A stretch of 64,000 nucleotides of DNA from the NCBI GenBank assembly GCA_964461635.1, contig CAYWVC010000001.1:627-64626 (forward strand), given 5' to 3'. Made by a program: the position numbers and the translations under genes. Below the pieces are notes generated by a model. The model was given only the letters and a program-made list of their open reading frames with translations, ran no database searches and had not been told where the DNA came from. Origin of the DNA: an uncultured Lachnospiraceae bacterium. GTDB lineage: Bacteria; Bacillota; Clostridia; Oscillospirales; CAG-272. This document shows positions 1 to 11,226 of the stretch, in pieces; the first letter of the stretch is position 1, and every line of letters begins with the position of its first letter.

Positions 1-48
1 CTCAAGACCGATGACGTTAAAACGATACTGGCGAAGTACAAGGACTGA
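1..48 (+). CDS. 3' end of an ORF cut by the window edge; probably the NuoE-like (HydC) hydrogenase subunit
   Basis: Frame 1 reads LKTDDVKTILAKYKD followed by TGA at 46-48. It lies directly upstream of the HK-like ATPase/ferredoxin/hydB/hydA genes. Identity is by context only, since 15 aa are visible. Confidence 0.3.
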   Translation, partial: LKTDDVKTILAKYKD

Positions 49-57
49 TCTCTCGGT

Positions 58-612
58 ATGAAGGAGCTGTCGCTGAATATTCTTGATATAACGCAGAATT
101 CGATAAGTGCCGGTGCCGACCGTATAAGCATTGAGTTGACCGAGGATGCCTCGCATCTGCTGACCGTTGCGATACGCGATAACGGTTGCGGTATGTCGGC
201 GGAAACGGTAGCAAGGGTGGTCGATCCGTTTTATACCACGAGGACCACGAGAAAGGTGGGTATGGGTATACCGCTGTTCAAGCTTGCGTCTGAGCAGACG
301 GGCGGGGAGCTTAAGATAGACTCCGTTACCTCGGATGCCGATCCGCACAACCACGGGACTTCGGTCGTCGCGACCTTTCATACCGACAGCATCGATTTTA
401 CCCCGATCGGGGATATCGTGTCTACCGTTTGCGTTATCATTCAGGGACATCCCGAGATCAATTATGTATTCAGGCATAAAACGCCCGAATACGACGTGTT
501 CCTCAACACGTCGGAATTGCGTGAGGTGCTTGGGGAGGGGATCTCCCTCGGTGAGCCCGAGATCATTGCGTGGATCGCCGATTACCTAACGCAACAATAT
601 AATAATGAATAA
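58..612 (+). CDS. Stand-alone histidine-kinase-like ATPase domain protein (HATPase_c only) of the hydrogenase operon
   Basis: 184 aa. N-box-like ELSLNILDITQNSISAG, G1 DNGCGM, G2 GMGIPL. No DHp/phospho-His or sensor domain is visible. Confidence 0.75.
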   Translation: MKELSLNILDITQNSISAGADRISIELTEDASHLLTVAIRDNGCGMSAETVARVVDPFYTTRTTRKVGMGIPLFKLASEQTGGELKIDSVTSDADPHNHGTSVVATFHTDSIDFTPIGDIVSTVCVIIQGHPEINYVFRHKTPEYDVFLNTSELREVLGEGISLGEPEIIAWIADYLTQQYNNE

Positions 613-1026: not shown

Positions 1027-2820
1027 ATGATACGCTCACATGTCCTGATCTGCGGCGGAACGGGTTGTACCTCTTCCGGAAGTGCAGCGGTAAGGGAAGC
1101 TCTTGAAAAGGAGCTTGAGGCAAAGGGACTTACCGAAGAAATTAAGATAGTGACCACCGGGTGCTTCGGACTTTGCGCCCTCGGTCCGGTTATGATCGTA
1201 TATCCGGACGGCACGTTCTACAGTATGGTTAAACCGGAGGACGTTACCGAGATCGTTGAGGAGCATCTTCTCAAGGGTCGTCCGGTTGCAAGACTTGAAT
1301 ACCACGAAAAGAGCGGTGATCACCACATCCCGACCTCTCTTTCGGACACGCAGTTCTATAAGAGACAGCACCGCGTCGCGCTTCGCAACTGCGGTGTTAT
1401 AAACCCCGAGGATATTAACGAATACATAGCCGTTGACGGATATCAGGCACTTGGTAAGGTGCTTACCGAGATGACCCCCGATGAGGTCATTCAGACTATG
1501 CTTGATTCGGGACTTCGCGGGCGCGGCGGCGCGGGCTTCCCGACCGGTCTGAAATGGAAGTTTGCCTCCGGTAACCGCGGCAAGGTCCAGAAGTACGTTT
1601 GCTGTAACGCCGATGAGGGCGACCCCGGAGCCTTTATGGACAGATCCATACTTGAGGGTGACCCCCACGCAGTGCTTGAGGCTATGGCTATCGCCGGATA
1701 TGCGATCGGTTCAAATCAGGGCTACATTTATGTCCGCGCCGAGTACCCGATAGCTATTCACCGTCTTGAGATCGCAATAAAGCAGGCACACGAGCTCGGC
1801 TTGCTCGGAACCGATATTTTCGGTACCGGATTTGATTTTGACGTTCAGCTCAGATTCGGTGCGGGTGCTTTCGTTTGCGGTGAGGAAACCGCACTTATGA
1901 CCTCTATTGAGGGCAAGCGCGGCGAGCCGCGTCCCCGTCCTCCTTTCCCGGCGGTCAAGGGTCTGTTTGCTCAGCCTACCATACTCAATAACGTCGAGAC
2001 CTACGCAAACATCCCGCAGATCATTCTTAAGGGTGCCGACTGGTTTGCATCTATGGGAAGTGAGAAGTCAAAGGGCACCAAGGTTTTCGCCCTTGGCGGT
2101 AAGATCACGAATACGGGACTTATCGAGATCCCGATGGGAACCTCTCTGCGTGAGATAATTTACGATATCGGCGGCGGAGTGCCGAACGGCAAGAAGCTTA
2201 AGGCGGTTCAGACCGGCGGTCCTTCCGGCGGATGTATCCCCGCAAGCCTTATCGACACACCCGTTGACTACGAGAGCCTTGCGGCGATCGGTTCGATCAT
2301 CGGTTCGGGCGGTATGATCGTTATGGACGAGGATAACTGTATGGTCGATATCGCGAAATTCTTCCTTGAATTCACGGTCGACGAATCCTGCGGAAAGTGT
2401 ACCGCGTGCCGCGTTGGTACGAGAAGACTCCTTGAGCTCTTGGATAAGGTCATCTCCGGAAACGGTGAGATGGAGGACCTTGACAAAATGGAGCAGCTCG
2501 CAATGTATATCAAGACCAATTCGCTCTGCGGTCTTGGTCAGACGGCACCTAACCCCGTTCTTTCCACGCTCAAATATTTCCGTGAGGAATATATTGCTCA
2601 TATCGTGGACAAGAAGTGCCCGGCGCACGTTTGCAAGAAGCTCGTAAGATATAAGATCCTTGAGGATAAGTGCCGCGGATGCACGAAGTGCGCGAGAAAC
2701 TGCCCGGTCAACGCCATCAGCGGCTCGGTCAAGCAGCTTCATACGATCGATCAGCAGAAGTGCATAAAGTGCGGAGCCTGTATGACCGGTTGTGCGTTTA
2801 AGGCTATTGTCAAGGAATAA
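1027..2820 (+). CDS. hydB: NuoF-like NAD(P)H-binding flavoprotein subunit of bifurcating [FeFe]-hydrogenase (HydB)
   Basis: 597 aa. N-terminal Trx-like 2Fe-2S (CGGTGC...CFGLCALGP), FMN/NADH site GRGGAGFPTGLKW, and C-terminal CRGCTKCARNCP and CIKCGACMTGC 4Fe-4S motifs. Confidence 0.9.
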   Translation: MIRSHVLICGGTGCTSSGSAAVREALEKELEAKGLTEEIKIVTTGCFGLCALGPVMIVYPDGTFYSMVKPEDVTEIVEEHLLKGRPVARLEYHEKSGDHHIPTSLSDTQFYKRQHRVALRNCGVINPEDINEYIAVDGYQALGKVLTEMTPDEVIQTMLDSGLRGRGGAGFPTGLKWKFASGNRGKVQKYVCCNADEGDPGAFMDRSILEGDPHAVLEAMAIAGYAIGSNQGYIYVRAEYPIAIHRLEIAIKQAHELGLLGTDIFGTGFDFDVQLRFGAGAFVCGEETALMTSIEGKRGEPRPRPPFPAVKGLFAQPTILNNVETYANIPQIILKGADWFASMGSEKSKGTKVFALGGKITNTGLIEIPMGTSLREIIYDIGGGVPNGKKLKAVQTGGPSGGCIPASLIDTPVDYESLAAIGSIIGSGGMIVMDEDNCMVDIAKFFLEFTVDESCGKCTACRVGTRRLLELLDKVISGNGEMEDLDKMEQLAMYIKTNSLCGLGQTAPNPVLSTLKYFREEYIAHIVDKKCPAHVCKKLVRYKILEDKCRGCTKCARNCPVNAISGSVKQLHTIDQQKCIKCGACMTGCAFKAIVKE

Positions 2821-2840: not shown

Positions 2841-4595
2841 ATGGATAACATTACAGTTACGATTAACGGCAAAGAATATGAGGTTGCCGCCGGTGTGACG
2901 GTCCTTGAGGCCGCCAGAGCGGCAAACATCAACATCCCGACTCTTTGCTATTTGAAGGATATCAACGAGATCGGCGCGTGCCGTATGTGCGTGGTCGAGG
3001 TATCCGAGGGCGGAAAGCCCTTCAGAATGGTCACGGCGTGCGTTTATCCCGTGTCCAACGGTATGGTCATTAAGACCGATTCGCCGAAGATCAACGAGTC
3101 AAGAAAGCTCAACCTTGAGCTGCTTCTTTCCAACCATAATCAGGATTGCCTGTCCTGCGTGCGCTCTACCACCTGCGAGCTTCAGAAGCTTTGCCGCGAT
3201 TACGGCGTTTCAAGCAGCAGATTCGGCGGTGCGAAGACCGAGACACACACCGACTATTCGTCCGCGGCAATTATGCGCGATAATTCCAAGTGCATTCTTT
3301 GTCGTCGTTGCGTTGCGGCGTGTAAGACTATGCAGGATATCGGCGTTATAGGCGCAAATAACCGTGGATTCGATACCGAGATAGGGTGCGCATTCGAGAT
3401 GAAGCTTGCCGATACCGCTTGTGTAAATTGCGGTCAGTGCATCGTTGCGTGCCCGACCGGTGCGCTTCATGAGAAGGATCAGACCGCAGAGGTGTTTGAG
3501 GCACTTGCCGATCCCGATAAGAAGGTCTACCTTTGCACGGCGCCCTCGGTACGTGCGACGTTGGGCGAATGCTTCGGCTATGCACCCGGCACCGACGTTG
3601 AGGGTAAGATGGTCGCGGCCGCCAAGCGCCTCGGCTTTGACGGCGTGTTCGATATGAACTTTACCGCCGACCTTACGATTATGGAGGAGGGCTACGAGCT
3701 CATCAGCCGTATAAAGGAAAACAAGAATCTTCCTTTGATCACCTCCTGCTCGCCCGGTTGGGTCAAGTATTGTGAGCATTATTTCCCGGAATTTACCGAT
3801 AATCTTTCGACCTGCAAGTCTCCTCAGCAGATGTTCGGCGCGGTGATGAAGACCTATTTCGCAGAGAAGAACGGTATTGATCCGGCAGACATTTACTTCG
3901 TGTCCGCCATTCCTTGTACCGCGAAGAAGTTTGAGGTCAGACGCGAGCACGAATGTGCCGCGGGTGAGGGCATCTACGACGTGGACGTTGCGATCACTAC
4001 CCGCGAGCTCGGCAGAATGATCGAGAAGGCAGGCATCGACTTTAAGGCTCTGGACGACGAGCAGTTTGACGATCCGTTCAGCATCGGCTCCGGTGCGGGT
4101 GCCATCTTCGGCGCGACCGGCGGAGTTATGGAGGCGGCTCTTCGTACTGCCGCAGAGGTCTTGACCGGCAAAGAGCTCAAGAAGGTCGACTTCAGTGAGG
4201 TTCGCGGTAATGCCGCCATCAAGCTTGCGACCTACGATCTCGGCGGTCTGACCGTCAAGGTTGCCGTTGCCAGCGGAACGAAGAACGCCAAAGAGCTTCT
4301 GAATAAGATCAAGTCGGGCGAGATCGAGGCACAGTTTGTCGAGATTATGTGTTGCCCGGGCGGATGCGTAAACGGCGGCGGTCAGCCGACTCAGCCCGCT
4401 TACGTGCGTAACAACACCGATCTTCAGGGACTTCGCGCTGCGGTGCTTTATAATGCCGATGCCAATAAGCTTCAGTACAGAAAGTCGCACGAGAATCCCC
4501 GTATCAAGCAGATCTACGAGGAATTCTTCGGTGAGCCCAACAGCCACAAAGCGCACGAGATACTTCACACCTCGTACGTTAAGCGTGGCGTTTGA
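2841..4595 (+). CDS. hydA: [FeFe]-hydrogenase catalytic subunit (HydA), with a non-canonical L1 motif
   Basis: 584 aa. N-terminal 2Fe-2S (CYLKDINEIGACRMC), HNQDCLSCVRSTTC, two ferredoxin-type CxxCxxCxxxC motifs. H-domain motifs are TSCSPGW, IPCTAKKFE and EIMCCPGGCVNGGGQP. Confidence 0.9.
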   Translation: MDNITVTINGKEYEVAAGVTVLEAARAANINIPTLCYLKDINEIGACRMCVVEVSEGGKPFRMVTACVYPVSNGMVIKTDSPKINESRKLNLELLLSNHNQDCLSCVRSTTCELQKLCRDYGVSSSRFGGAKTETHTDYSSAAIMRDNSKCILCRRCVAACKTMQDIGVIGANNRGFDTEIGCAFEMKLADTACVNCGQCIVACPTGALHEKDQTAEVFEALADPDKKVYLCTAPSVRATLGECFGYAPGTDVEGKMVAAAKRLGFDGVFDMNFTADLTIMEEGYELISRIKENKNLPLITSCSPGWVKYCEHYFPEFTDNLSTCKSPQQMFGAVMKTYFAEKNGIDPADIYFVSAIPCTAKKFEVRREHECAAGEGIYDVDVAITTRELGRMIEKAGIDFKALDDEQFDDPFSIGSGAGAIFGATGGVMEAALRTAAEVLTGKELKKVDFSEVRGNAAIKLATYDLGGLTVKVAVASGTKNAKELLNKIKSGEIEAQFVEIMCCPGGCVNGGGQPTQPAYVRNNTDLQGLRAAVLYNADANKLQYRKSHENPRIKQIYEEFFGEPNSHKAHEILHTSYVKRGV

Positions 4596-7236: not shown

Positions 7237-9747
7237 TTGAAACAGTTTAACGTGACCGGGATGAGCTGTGCCGCTTGCAGTGCAAGAGTAGAGAAGGCGG
7301 TGTCAAATGTTAAGGGCGTTACGTCGTGTTCGGTGAGCCTTTTGACCAATTCGATGGGGGTCGAGGGCACTGCCGAGGACAGCGCGATCATCGCGGCAGT
7401 GGAAAAAGCGGGCTATGGTGCGACGCTTAAGGGGGGCGCGGCTTCGCCCGAAAGGTCTGCGGACGATCCCTTGCGTGACCGTGAGACGCCGAGGCTCGTT
7501 CGGCGACTTAGTGCGTCGGCGGTATTTCTGCTGTTGTTAATGTATATATCTATGGGTCATATGATGTGGGGCTGGTGGCTCCCGTCGTGGCTTGCCGATA
7601 ATCATATTGCTATGGGACTTGCTCAAATGATCCTGTCTGCTACCGTTATGGTAATTAACCAAAAGTTCTTCATCAGCGGCTTTAAGGCATTGATCAAGCG
7701 TTCCCCGAATATGGACACCTTGGTCGCTCTCGGCTCCGCCGCGTCGTTCGGATGGAGCGTCGTAGTGCTTTTCCTTATGACCGACGCTCAGATGCGCGGC
7801 GATACCAACGCCGTTATGCAATATATGGATAGCTTTTATTTTGAGTCGGCGGCAATGATTCTTACCCTTATTACAGTCGGCAAGCTGCTTGAGGCGCGAT
7901 CGAAGGGCAAGACCACCGACGCGCTCAGGAGCCTTATGAAGCTTGCACCGCAGAGCGCGACCGTAGTGACCGATGAAGGGGAGACCGTGGTGCCGATCGA
8001 ACGCGTTAAGATAGGGGACGTTTTTGCGGTTCGCCCCGGGGAGAATATTCCGGTCGACGGCATAGTGATCGACGGTAGCAGTGCGGTAAACGAAGCGGCG
8101 TTGACGGGTGAAAGCATACCGGTGGATAAGCACGTCGGCGATCGGGTATCGGCGGCTACGGTCAATCAATCCGGATATATAAAGTGTGAGGCAACCAGAG
8201 TCGGCGAAGATACCACCTTGTCGCAGATAATCAAGATGGTGAGTGATGCCGCCGCAACGAAGGCTCCGATAGCCAAGGTTGCCGATCGTGTTTCGGGAGT
8301 TTTCGTTCCGATAGTTATGGGCATTTCTCTCGTTGCGCTTGCGGTTTGGCTTATTATAACCGGGGATTTCGGATATTCGTTGGCAAGGGGCATATCGGTG
8401 CTCGTGATAAGCTGTCCTTGCGCGCTTGGACTTGCCACACCGGTAGCTATAATGGTCGGAAACGGAGTTGGGGCACGAAACGGAATTCTGTTCAAAAATG
8501 CGTCTGCTCTTGAGGCGGCGGGAAAAACAAGGATAATTGCGCTTGATAAGACGGGTACTATCACAAACGGCGAGCCTCTCGTGACCGATCTGCTTCCCGC
8601 GGACGGTGTGTCGGAACGCGAGCTCCTTGAGCTTGCCGCGGCTGTCGAGGCAAAGAGTGAGCATCCCTTGGCGAAGGCGATATTGAAAAAGGGCGAGGAG
8701 CTTGGGCTTTCCGTGCCCGACGTATATGACTTTAAGGCTCTTACGGGAAGCGGAGTTTCCGGTAATGTCGGAGATAGTCTTATCTTGGGCGGAAGCTTGA
8801 AATTCATATCGGAAGGTGTTGCGATAGACGACGGCGTGACACGTATGGCGGGAAGCTTGGCTGAGGACGGCAAGACCCCGCTTCTGTTTACGCGCAACGG
8901 AAAGCTGCTTGGAATGATCGCGGTTGCGGATACGGTCAAGGCAGACAGCCCCGCCGCGATACGTGCCCTGAGAGATATGGGAATCAGCGTGGTAATGCTT
9001 ACGGGCGATAATGAACGCACGGCAAAGGCAATAGGAACCTTGGCGGGTGTTGACGAGGTGATAGCCGACGTTTTGCCCGACGGCAAGGAGGCTGTCATTA
9101 GGGAGCTTAAAAAGCAGGGCAGGGTAGCTATGGTCGGCGACGGCATAAACGATGCGCCCGCGCTTGTACGTGCCGACGTCGGTATAGCCATCGGTGCCGG
9201 TGCCGACGTCGCGATAGATGCCGCCGATATCGTCCTTATGAAAAGCTCGCTTGCCGACGTTCCCGCGGCGATAAGCCTGAGCCGCGCTACGCTGAGGAAT
9301 ATTCACGAAAATCTCTTCTGGGCGTTCATATATAACGGAATCGGAATACCCTTGGCGGCGGGATGCTTCGTGGCGTTCGGACTTACCTTAAACCCTATGT
9401 TCGGTGCGGCGGCTATGAGCCTTTCGAGCTTTTGCGTGGTCACGAATGCTTTGCGCCTGAACTTCTGCAATATCTACCGCGCACCAAGGCATCGGACTCA
9501 TAGCCGTCAGACGGACGTTCACGCAACATTGACCCAAAACGTCTTGCGCGAGCAGACGGTACGTATCGACGGAATGATGTGCGGCCATTGTGAAGCACGC
9601 GTAAAGGAAGCGCTTGAAGCATTGCCTTTTGTCACAAGTGCGAAGGCCGATCACACCAAAGGGGAGGCTCTGCTGAAGCTTAACGGCGAACCCTCCGATA
9701 AAGAGATCAAAAAAGCAGTGAAAAAAGCAGGTTATAAGGTGATATGA
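7237..9747 (+). CDS. copA: Copper-translocating P1B-type ATPase with N- and C-terminal HMA domains
   Basis: 836 aa. TTG start 9 nt after GGAG. N-terminal GMSCAAC, TM CPC motif ([11 protein letters not shown]), [16 protein letters not shown]-terminal second HMA (GMMCGHC). Confidence 0.9.
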
Positions 9748-10739
9748 GCTATTCGGAGCCTAATCCCCAATGGCGCATAAGTTATAAGACCGACAAGGAA
9801 ATGTCAAAGCAATGGCATATGAGCCGACGTCGGGTGATTGAGTTTTGCCTTGACGAAAAGATCAATGATATTATCTCGGTGGATTGGTGGGCATATCGCA
9901 TAGCGGATGATTTGCCCAAGCCAATACCGCAGAGAACTTACCTGCGGCAGATAGATGCCAAACAGCGTGAGTTTGCCTCGATCGATCCGCCCGATAAATT
10001 CGTCGTTCAGTGGATGGAGAACGAGCTCATTGCCGGCTTCATCTACCATACCAACCGTATATGCGGCAGCTTGCTTACCTTTGACGACACGGTCAACGTT
10101 TTGAACGGGGCGGAGGTCAATGCCAGATTTCCCGAAGACGTTGACGCAGTTATAAGACAAAGGGACGCTTTGCTTTATCTTCGGTCTGCCGCTCGGAACG
10201 GCGAAACGCTTTCGCACGAGCTTATCAAACACGTTCATTATTTGCTGATGAACGGCAAATGCGAATCCGCAGGTGATTATCGCACAAGGCGAGTGGGTCT
10301 TGAGACCGGGGATCTTACGATCCAACCGTATAAGGAAATTACGAAAAAGATCCGGAAGCTGATCTCCGAAAATGCCCGTTCCTGCAAAAAGAATATGCCT
10401 GCCGCCATGCGGATGGCGAGACTCTATCTGACGTTTTTGGATATGAGACCGTTTTACGACGGTAATCGCAGGGTTGCACGGTTACTTGTTAACTTTGAGC
10501 TTATGCGCGCGGGCTTCCCGATTATAATCGTGCGGTTTTGTGACAGTGCCCGCGTTTTCCGCGCCACTGAAACGTTCATCGAGCAAGGTAGCTTTGAGCA
10601 TATGGCGGAGCTTATGGCGATGGCGATTGACCGAAGTCTGGATATCTACCTTCCGGTATACAAGAAGGTAGACGAGAACCGTAGGGCACCGCGCCGTCAA
10701 TTATACAAACGGACGAAAAGAAAGATACAAAGCAGATGA
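9744..10739 (+). CDS. Fic-fold protein with a degenerate active-site motif and an N-terminal HTH-like segment
   Basis: 331 aa. ATGA overlap with the copA stop. Fic core is recognisable (AGDYRTRRV; [14 protein letters not shown] in place of HPFxDGNGRxxR). N-terminus [21 protein letters not shown]...DLPKP resembles HTH_17-type modules. Confidence 0.7.
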
Positions 10740-10755: not shown

Positions 10756-11226
10756 ATGAAGCTATTGCTGCGTCAGCGTATTTTTTCGTGGTTTGACAGC
10801 TACGATATCTATGATGAGGGCGGCAACACGGCGTATACCGTCCGCGGGCAACTTTCCTGGGGACACAGATTTCGCATTACCGATGCCGACGGGCGTGAGG
10901 TTGGCGAGATTGCCGAGCGTGTCCTGTCCTTTTTTCCGAGCTTTGATATCTATATGCACGGGGAGTATTGCGGCTGTATACGTAAGAGGTTCAGCTTGTT
11001 TAAGCCGGTCTTTGATATGGAGTTCAACGGGTGGCATATTGAGGGCGATTTTATGGAATGGGATTACAGTATAGTCGATTCCTGCGGTAACGATGTGGCG
11101 ATCATATCAAAACAATTGTTCAATTGGTCCGATACATATGAGATCAACATAATAAAATCTACCGATAATCTGTCTGCATTGATGGTTGTTTTGGCAATTG
11201 ATGCCGAAAAATGCTCCAGAAATTGA
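10756..11226 (+). CDS. LURP-one-related / tubby C-terminal-like (DUF567) family protein
   Basis: 156 aa. MKLLLRQRIFSWFDSYDIYDEGGN...FDIYMHGEY...WDYSIVD pattern typical of the family as I recall it. SD aggagg upstream. Confidence 0.6.
   Translation: MKLLLRQRIFSWFDSYDIYDEGGNTAYTVRGQLSWGHRFRITDADGREVGEIAERVLSFFPSFDIYMHGEYCGCIRKRFSLFKPVFDMEFNGWHIEGDFMEWDYSIVDSCGNDVAIISKQLFNWSDTYEINIIKSTDNLSALMVVLAIDAEKCSRN

Follow-up and report, generated by a model that had tools for sequence, protein, structure and literature searches.

The closest solved structure to the [FeFe]-hydrogenase subunit described here is HydA1 of Acetobacterium woodii (PDB 7q4v, 7q4w and 8a5e; 7q4v_A, E 1e-208, 54% identity), which is part of an electron-bifurcating HydABC(D) complex (Katsyv et al. 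2023, PMC10021017). In this protein, the cluster A1 ligand Cys299 of the T. kivui enzyme is replaced by Ser301. The A. woodii enzyme was purified, its structure was solved by cryo-EM and its H-cluster showed a normal FTIR signature; the A. woodii and T. kivui complexes were both described as active and as containing a typical H-cluster. At the resolution of the A. woodii cryo-EM maps, the Fe-O bond was modelled rather than precisely measured (PMC10021017). In HydA1 of Chlamydomonas (CrHydA1), the corresponding exchange C115S resulted in poor [4Fe-4S] occupancy and an activity of <1 unit, and the variants C115S, C115A and C115D lost their activity altogether and the [4Fe-4S] cluster for the most part (Kertess et al. 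2017, PMC5855289). In the same study, serine was noted at this position in ~20% of hydrogenase sequences, and the motif TSCSPGW is found in two confurcating hydrogenases of Melainabacteria (Di Rienzi et al. 2013, PMC3787301). Records of this serine in alignments go back to 2017 at the latest, and in 2023 it was visualised in an active enzyme, where it is spectroscopically silent.

The HydA protein encoded at the locus investigated here is very probably an ordinary catalytic subunit of the HydABC type, an orthologue of A. woodii HydA1 with a working, Ser304-ligated H-cluster and a known, selected variant. L1 is identical in both proteins (...LPMITSCSPGW...), with serine at the position of the [4Fe-4S]H ligand, and the two also agree in their M3 domain architecture, L3 ligands and proton path (TM 0.93). 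Differences were found in L2 (I-M-P-C in A. woodii, A-I-P-C here), at the position of CpI I268 (Thr in A. woodii, Met272 here) and at two further sites, where Ile308 and Ala501 of A. woodii are replaced by Cys311 and Cys504. Moreover, A. woodii is an acetogen, whereas the lineage studied here is one of gut or rumen fermenters. HydA1 of Thermoanaerobacter kivui (8a6t), HydA of Thermotoga maritima (7p5h) and CpI of Clostridium pasteurianum (e.g. 4xdc, 3c8y) share the fold (TM 0.87–0.95). In T. kivui HydA1 (48% identity) and CpI (43% identity), the cluster-binding and proton-transfer residues and L3 are as in the protein described here, while L1 and L2 are canonical (TSCCP, MPC); T. maritima HydA was compared by fold, with 38–39% identity in the Foldseek alignment.

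The hyd operon and its catalytic subunit

The window, which is the whole stretch of 64,000 nucleotides analysed, opens in the 3' end of a putative hydC, which is followed by the four other genes of the operon (Table 1). The hydC fragment (frame 1) ends with ...DDVKTILAKYKD before the stop codon and matches the C-terminus ...ADVEGILAKYKN of a PF01257 (NuoE-like) gene, which precedes the HATPase gene in the related locus L014. The HATPase gene occupies the same place in L014, as does an open reading frame of 123 aa, for which no Pfam match was obtained at E<=1e-5. The 123-aa protein encoded in the window matches PF01257, while its match to NF041612 is below the cutoff of that profile. The gene order hydC-HATPase-2Fe2S-hydB-hydA is common to related genomes. 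In L014, a HydS-like homologue (Fe_hyd_lg_C and PF04060) and a PHP-domain gene are located upstream of the operon. Among the 30 other open reading frames of the window, none was assigned to hydE, hydF or hydG by Pfam and only housekeeping genes were found; scans of the window for tRNAs and Rfam families gave no match.

Table 1. Positions of the hyd genes and of the H-cluster motifs and codons of HydA in the window
Feature	Positions	Strand	Basis or remark
Putative hydC 3' end, NuoE-like	1..48	+	last 15 codons, cut by the window start
HATPase_c-domain protein, 184 aa, within the hyd operon	58..612	+	PF02518, E 3e-13
Small thioredoxin-like [2Fe-2S] ferredoxin protein, 123 aa	633..1004	+	PF01257, E 1e-6
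hydB, NuoF-like flavoprotein	1027..2820	+	Pfam, PDB; N-terminal [2Fe-2S], C-terminal 2x[4Fe-4S]
hydA, M3-type [FeFe]-hydrogenase catalytic subunit, 584 aa	2841..4595	+	Pfam, NF040763, PDB, AF2
Met272 codon	3654..3656	+	alignment; CpI I268 position, second sphere of [2Fe]H
L1, T301-S302-C303-S304-P305-G306-W307	3741..3761	+	acc tcc tgc tcg ccc ggt tgg
S304 codon, TCG	3750-3752	+	alignment to CpI C300; [4Fe-4S]H ligand position
Cys311 codon, TGT	3771..3773	+	alignment; in VKYCEHY, CpI A307 position
L2, A-I357-P-C359	3906-3917	+	I357 in place of CpI M353; C359 as [4Fe-4S]H ligand
I357 codon, ATT	3909-3911	+	
C359 codon	3915-3917	+	
L3, E501-I-M503-C504-C505-P-G-G-C509-V-N-G512	4341..4376	+	cluster ligands C505 and C509; additional cysteine C504
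C505 codon	4353-4355	+	
C509 codon	4365-4367	+	

HydB contains the Pfam domains 2Fe-2S_thioredx, Complex1_51K, SLBB, NADH_4Fe-4S and two Fer4. Its best PDB match is A. woodii HydB (7q4v_B, E 8e-285), which is covered in full length, and further full-length matches were obtained with HydB of T. kivui and T. maritima, in agreement with the HydB partner of HydABC complexes. HydA carries the domains Fer2_4, NADH-G_4Fe-4S_3, two Fer4, Fe_hyd_lg_C (PF02906, E 9e-94) and Fe_hyd_SSU (PF02256, E 3e-24). With 503 bits against TIGR02512 (cutoff 406), its H-domain belongs to group A, and against NF040763, the NCBIfam profile "NADH-dependent [FeFe] hydrogenase, group A6", it scored 849.3 bits (cutoff 765) over profile positions 1–571 of 571. 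In the literature, "group A6" was found only as an annotation label. The AlphaFold2 model of HydA (pLDDT 91.1, pTM 0.90) superimposes with a TM score of 0.93 on both 7q4w_A (A. woodii) and 8a6t_A (T. kivui) and of up to 0.95 across the T. kivui and CpI structures, which together with the Pfam domains identifies the M3 architecture of HydABC. The statement of an earlier note on this DNA that HydA and HydB look, apart from the motif deviations, like a standard HydABC is thus supported by the Pfam, NF040763 and PDB matches. The source would be one of the gut or rumen Clostridia and the complex a NuoE/NuoF-coupled hydrogenase of the bifurcating or confurcating kind.

HydA was aligned to the solved structures with phmmer and placed in a MAFFT alignment of 116 sequences including CpI, T. 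kivui HydA1 and A. woodii HydA1. In both, L1 is aligned without gaps to these three proteins. The counterparts of S304 are C300 in CpI, C299 in T. kivui and S301 in A. woodii, and according to the MAFFT alignment C303 corresponds to CpI C299, I357 to M353, C359 to C355, M503 to M497, C505 to C499 and C509 to C503. HydA does not match the textbook L1 motif TSCCPxW, as it carries TSCSPGW with the ligand Cys changed to Ser. In L2, which reads IPCTAKKFE against the consensus MPCxxKxxE, Met is changed to Ile while Cys359, K362 and E365 are retained; the L3 consensus ExMxCxxGCxxG is matched by EIMCCPGGCVNG at residues 501–512. The proton path is present (C303, E283, S323, E286 and R290, the counterparts of CpI C299, E279, S319, E282 and R286), and the residues of the di-iron pocket are kept (A234, P235, S236, P328, Q329, K362, E365, F423 and M503); both sets are invariant in 120 close homologues. 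On re-reading, the motif, its position, the residue numbers and the distance of 55 residues between S304 and C359 given in the earlier note were all found to be correct. Its assignment of the serine to the first cysteine ligand of [4Fe-4S]H, next to a retained proton-relay cysteine, is borne out by the alignment to CpI and by Ser301 as a ligand in A. woodii (PMC10021017).

Conservation and frequency of the serine

All of the 120 best database proteins (71–100% identity) contain S304, 119 of them in TSCSPGW and one in KSCSPGW, and TSCSPGW was also found in all of the 80 best loci from species-representative genomes (67–76% identity). The latter belong to gut or rumen Clostridia or Oscillospiraceae MAGs, Clostridium sp. 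CAG:448 and Eubacterium sp. CAG:180. Five different codons are used for the serine at these loci (TCG 29, TCT 26, TCA 19, TCC 5 and AGC 1). In addition, a Logan assembly (L081, run SRR10277269) encodes an identical protein of 584 aa; its 1755 nt differ at 47 silent sites, none of the differences replaces an amino acid, and the 21-nt DNA of the L1 motif is unchanged. Because the serine is found throughout the homologues, is encoded by five codons and is accompanied by silent differences only, S304 is taken to be under purifying selection.

The frequency of the variant in the family was estimated from the best 150 representatives of clusters at 50% identity, ~115 of which had a parsable motif. 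TSCSP or SSCSP was present in 19 and TSCCP in 86 of these, corresponding to ~16% TSCSP/SSCSP, in agreement with the published ~20%. The residue at +2 is Gly in 18/18 serine-type sequences compared to 29/70 of the cysteine type, in a count that ignores phylogeny. In a neighbour-joining tree of 116 sequences, the clade of the query is placed together with A. woodii and further sequences of the TSCSP type. The remaining TSCSP representatives are scattered in this quick tree, the deep branches of which are without resolution, so that it speaks neither for a single nor for multiple origins of the serine type.

Serine at the ligand position is a fixed and selected trait in a large share of group A hydrogenases. 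Since the same deviation is found in the active A. woodii enzyme and in ~16–20% of the family, the definition of L1 as TSCCPxW is too narrow and HydA is no outsider. The rarity and novelty of TSCSP implied by the earlier note did not hold for the same reason: TSCSPGW is common, occurs also in Melainabacteria and has already been characterised in an active group A enzyme, an outcome that the note itself had named as one speaking against its claim. The serine variant is already known, common and characterised, the identical protein is present in public databases, and the protein belongs to a curated family. If hydrogenases are validated by motif and TSCCPxW is required, the HydABC enzymes of this type from gut and rumen, a large and abundant group, would be discarded by mistake.

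Ser304 as a probable cluster ligand and competing readings

By analogy to A. woodii, the [4Fe-4S] cubane of the H-cluster would be held by Ser304 (via its oxygen), Cys359, Cys505 and Cys509, of which Cys509 would bridge the cubane to the di-iron site, while Cys303 beside Ser304 would remain the proton relay. The H-cluster with its serinate-ligated cubane would exchange electrons via the Fe-S chain of HydA with the flavin of HydB. NADH and ferredoxin would thereby be coupled to H2. In a gut organism that lives by fermentation, the reaction would probably run in the confurcating direction, with H2 as the product. Both the ligation of iron by the oxygen of Ser304 and electron bifurcation by the complex are predicted here from homology. 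In the one enzyme examined, that of A. woodii, serine is compatible with a normal H-cluster and with normal H2 turnover.

The cysteine-to-serine change at the equivalent ligand position is identical to that in CrHydA1 C115S. In contrast to the engineered variant, which lost cluster and activity, the natural serine types are selected, are active in A. woodii and always have Gly at +2. The failure of C115S in CrHydA1 therefore indicates that the tolerance towards serine depends on the protein context and is not automatic.

In an improbable alternative, the register of L1 is shifted, so that Cys303 binds [4Fe-4S]H and Ser304, Ser302 or water relays protons. This reading draws on the resolution of the A. 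woodii cryo-EM structure, which limits the certainty on O versus S ligation; Ser301 was nevertheless modelled as the ligand by the authors, and the canonical FTIR states and the activity of that enzyme need an intact proton relay. In HydA, the motif is gap-free in the alignment and the framing of L1 by strand 299–301 and helix 305–314 is preserved in the model. Furthermore, Gly at +2 is strictly coupled to serine, consistent with a ligand position that is kept and whose surroundings are locally adjusted.

In sensory and putative sensory [FeFe]-hydrogenases (groups C and D), the proton-relay Cys and the Met residues are altered, and a PAS domain or another extension, such as an extra Fe-S one, is present. 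HydA resembles TmHydS and TamHydS of these groups in that L1, L2 and L3 deviate from the canonical motifs, but unlike them it retains Cys303 and M503 and lacks a sensory domain. It is highly improbable that HydA is a degenerate or non-catalytic (regulatory) homologue in which the H-cluster is no longer assembled. The loss of most of the [4Fe-4S] cluster and of all activity in the three CrHydA1 variants and the absence of the canonical L2 Met would fit such a protein; however, the remaining ligands and the residues of the proton path do not vary and are under strong purifying selection, and A. woodii HydA1 is active with the same L1. In addition, the gene occupies the catalytic slot of a hydCBA operon, whereas the HydS-like homologue is separate and located upstream in related genomes, and no PAS or extra sensory domain was found in HydA by Pfam. 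A sensory or degenerate homologue was therefore rejected on the basis of the kept proton path, the operon position and the lack of sensory domains.

It was considered as well whether Cys311 or Cys504, the two additional cysteines, takes the place of the missing thiolate ligand, since Cys311 is invariant in the clade and Cys504 adjoins the ligand Cys505. This reading has a very low probability and was rejected in view of the helix geometry, the scattered occurrence and the lack of both cysteines in A. woodii. Cys311 is located in helix 305–314, two turns (seven residues) beyond S304 at the N-cap, and would be ~10 Å away as estimated from helix geometry; Cys is also found at this position in 5/70 cysteine-type sequences. 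Cys504 is present in only 7/120 close homologues, and A. woodii HydA1 works with Ile308 and Ala501, i.e. without either cysteine. The extra cysteine in VKYCEHY pointed out by the earlier note is real and invariant in the clade, but an unlikely substitute ligand.

A sequencing or assembly artefact with TGC as the true codon, which is an a priori possibility only, can practically be dismissed in view of serine in 200 homologues with five codons and of an independent assembly that shares the 21-nt motif but has 47 silent differences elsewhere in the gene; the earlier note had considered a single-base error unlikely, as TGC to TCG needs two substitutions.

Met272, Ile357 and Cys311 as a signature of the clade

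When L1 and L2 were tabulated in the relatives, as proposed in the earlier note, Ile357 was found to be as conserved as Ser304, namely in 120/120 proteins and 80/80 loci (codons ATT 57, ATC 21 and ATA 2). Other TSCSP representatives, including A. woodii, retain Met at this position. Met272 is also invariant in the 120 close homologues, while Thr is found in A. woodii and T. kivui and Ile in CpI; among the 116 aligned sequences, the pair of Met272 and Ile357 occurs only in the clade of the query. Cys311, too, is found without exception (120/120 proteins, 80/80 loci). The deviation of L2 described in the earlier note is thus real and clade-wide, but affects a site already known to vary: the position of CpI M353 is a naturally variable second-sphere site with Thr as the commonest substitute, and CpI I268 is listed as another residue close to the 2Fe subcluster (PMC5506873). 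As cited there from Knorzer et al. 2012, H2 production by CpI M353L was down to 15% of the wild type, while H2 oxidation was retained at 74%. In view of this loss in CpI, Ile357 could shift the rates or the bias relative to the A. woodii enzyme. A literature search found nothing on "IPCTAKK" or on a characterised member of the Ile357 clade, in a comparison from which HydA of Ruminococcus albus, a characterised enzyme, was left out.

The set of Ile357, Met272 and Cys311 is the only uncharacterised feature of HydA; it is clade-specific and of modest interest. The combination of Met272 and Ile357, as opposed to Ile or Thr and Met elsewhere, might tentatively be read as a reciprocal relocation of a second-sphere methionine, which together with the serine and Cys311 would tune the redox potential or the catalytic bias of HydABC towards H2 production in gut and rumen Clostridia, although this appears rather unlikely. 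If it were true, a comparison of the clade with A. woodii could reveal second-site residues that make the serine ligand tolerable. As the natural serine types work and the engineered C115S fails, the clade is useful for studying how an oxygen ligand is accommodated, with the invariant Gly306, Met272, Ile357 and Cys311 as material for comparison.

In L3 of HydA, M-C504-C505 is found where M-A-C is usual, an additional cysteine that is not mentioned in the earlier note.

Second-sphere residues near the di-iron site and an additional L3 cysteine

At two second-sphere positions close to the di-iron site, HydA carries Met272 and Ile357 where the Clostridium pasteurianum hydrogenase CpI has I268 and M353 in the alignment. 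Met and Ile appear to be exchanged between the two sites relative to CpI. The Met272/Ile357 pair was found in all of the 120 close homologues and, among 116 aligned group A sequences, was limited to the clade of this HydA. This is in contrast to HydA1 of A. woodii and T. kivui, in which the same sites are occupied by Thr and Met. Cys504, located next to the L3 ligand Cys505, is restricted among the 120 homologues to the query and its six closest relatives, and a residue of this type is also found sporadically in a few remote clusters.

Features in the window and in the related locus L014
Feature	Position	Strand	Remark
HATPase_c protein (histidine-kinase-type ATPase), stand-alone	58-612	+	between hydC and hydB
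Thioredoxin-like [2Fe-2S] protein, 123 aa	633-1004	+	between hydC and hydB
Met272 codon	3654-3656	+	CpI I268 position
Ile357 codon	3909-3911	+	CpI M353 position
Cys504 codon	4350-4352	+	additional Cys immediately N-terminal to ligand Cys505 (M-C-C-P-G-G-C)
Heavy-metal P-type ATPase	7237-9747		
Fic/DOC-domain protein	9744-10739		directly downstream of P-type ATPase gene
LURP-one-related (PF04525) protein	10756-11226		downstream of P-type ATPase, with Fic/DOC gene
HydS-like protein, 422 aa (L014)			upstream of hydCBA operon; Fe_hyd_lg_C and PF04060 'putative Fe-S cluster'
PHP-domain protein (L014)			upstream of hydCBA operon

Strain-level conservation of hydA

Between the window (2841-4595) and locus L081 (399-2153), on a contig assembled from run SRR10277269, hydA differs by 47 synonymous and no non-synonymous substitutions, the HydA proteins being identical, which indicates very strong purifying selection between closely related strains.

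Gene neighbourhood and an outsized predicted protein

The gene order hydC, HATPase_c, [2Fe-2S] protein, hydB is also kept in L014, a related Oscillospiraceae genome. Upstream of its hydCBA operon two genes are located (289-1557 and 1878-2642), encoding the HydS-like and PHP-domain proteins; the counterpart of this region falls upstream of the window start, outside the DNA covered. The Fic/DOC and LURP-one-related genes have no evident connection to the hydrogenase.

The highest bit score in the search of cluster representatives was obtained for P0121, a predicted protein of 4122 aa with seven stretches matching the H-domain, which could be a multi-hydrogenase fusion or else an assembly or gene-call artefact.
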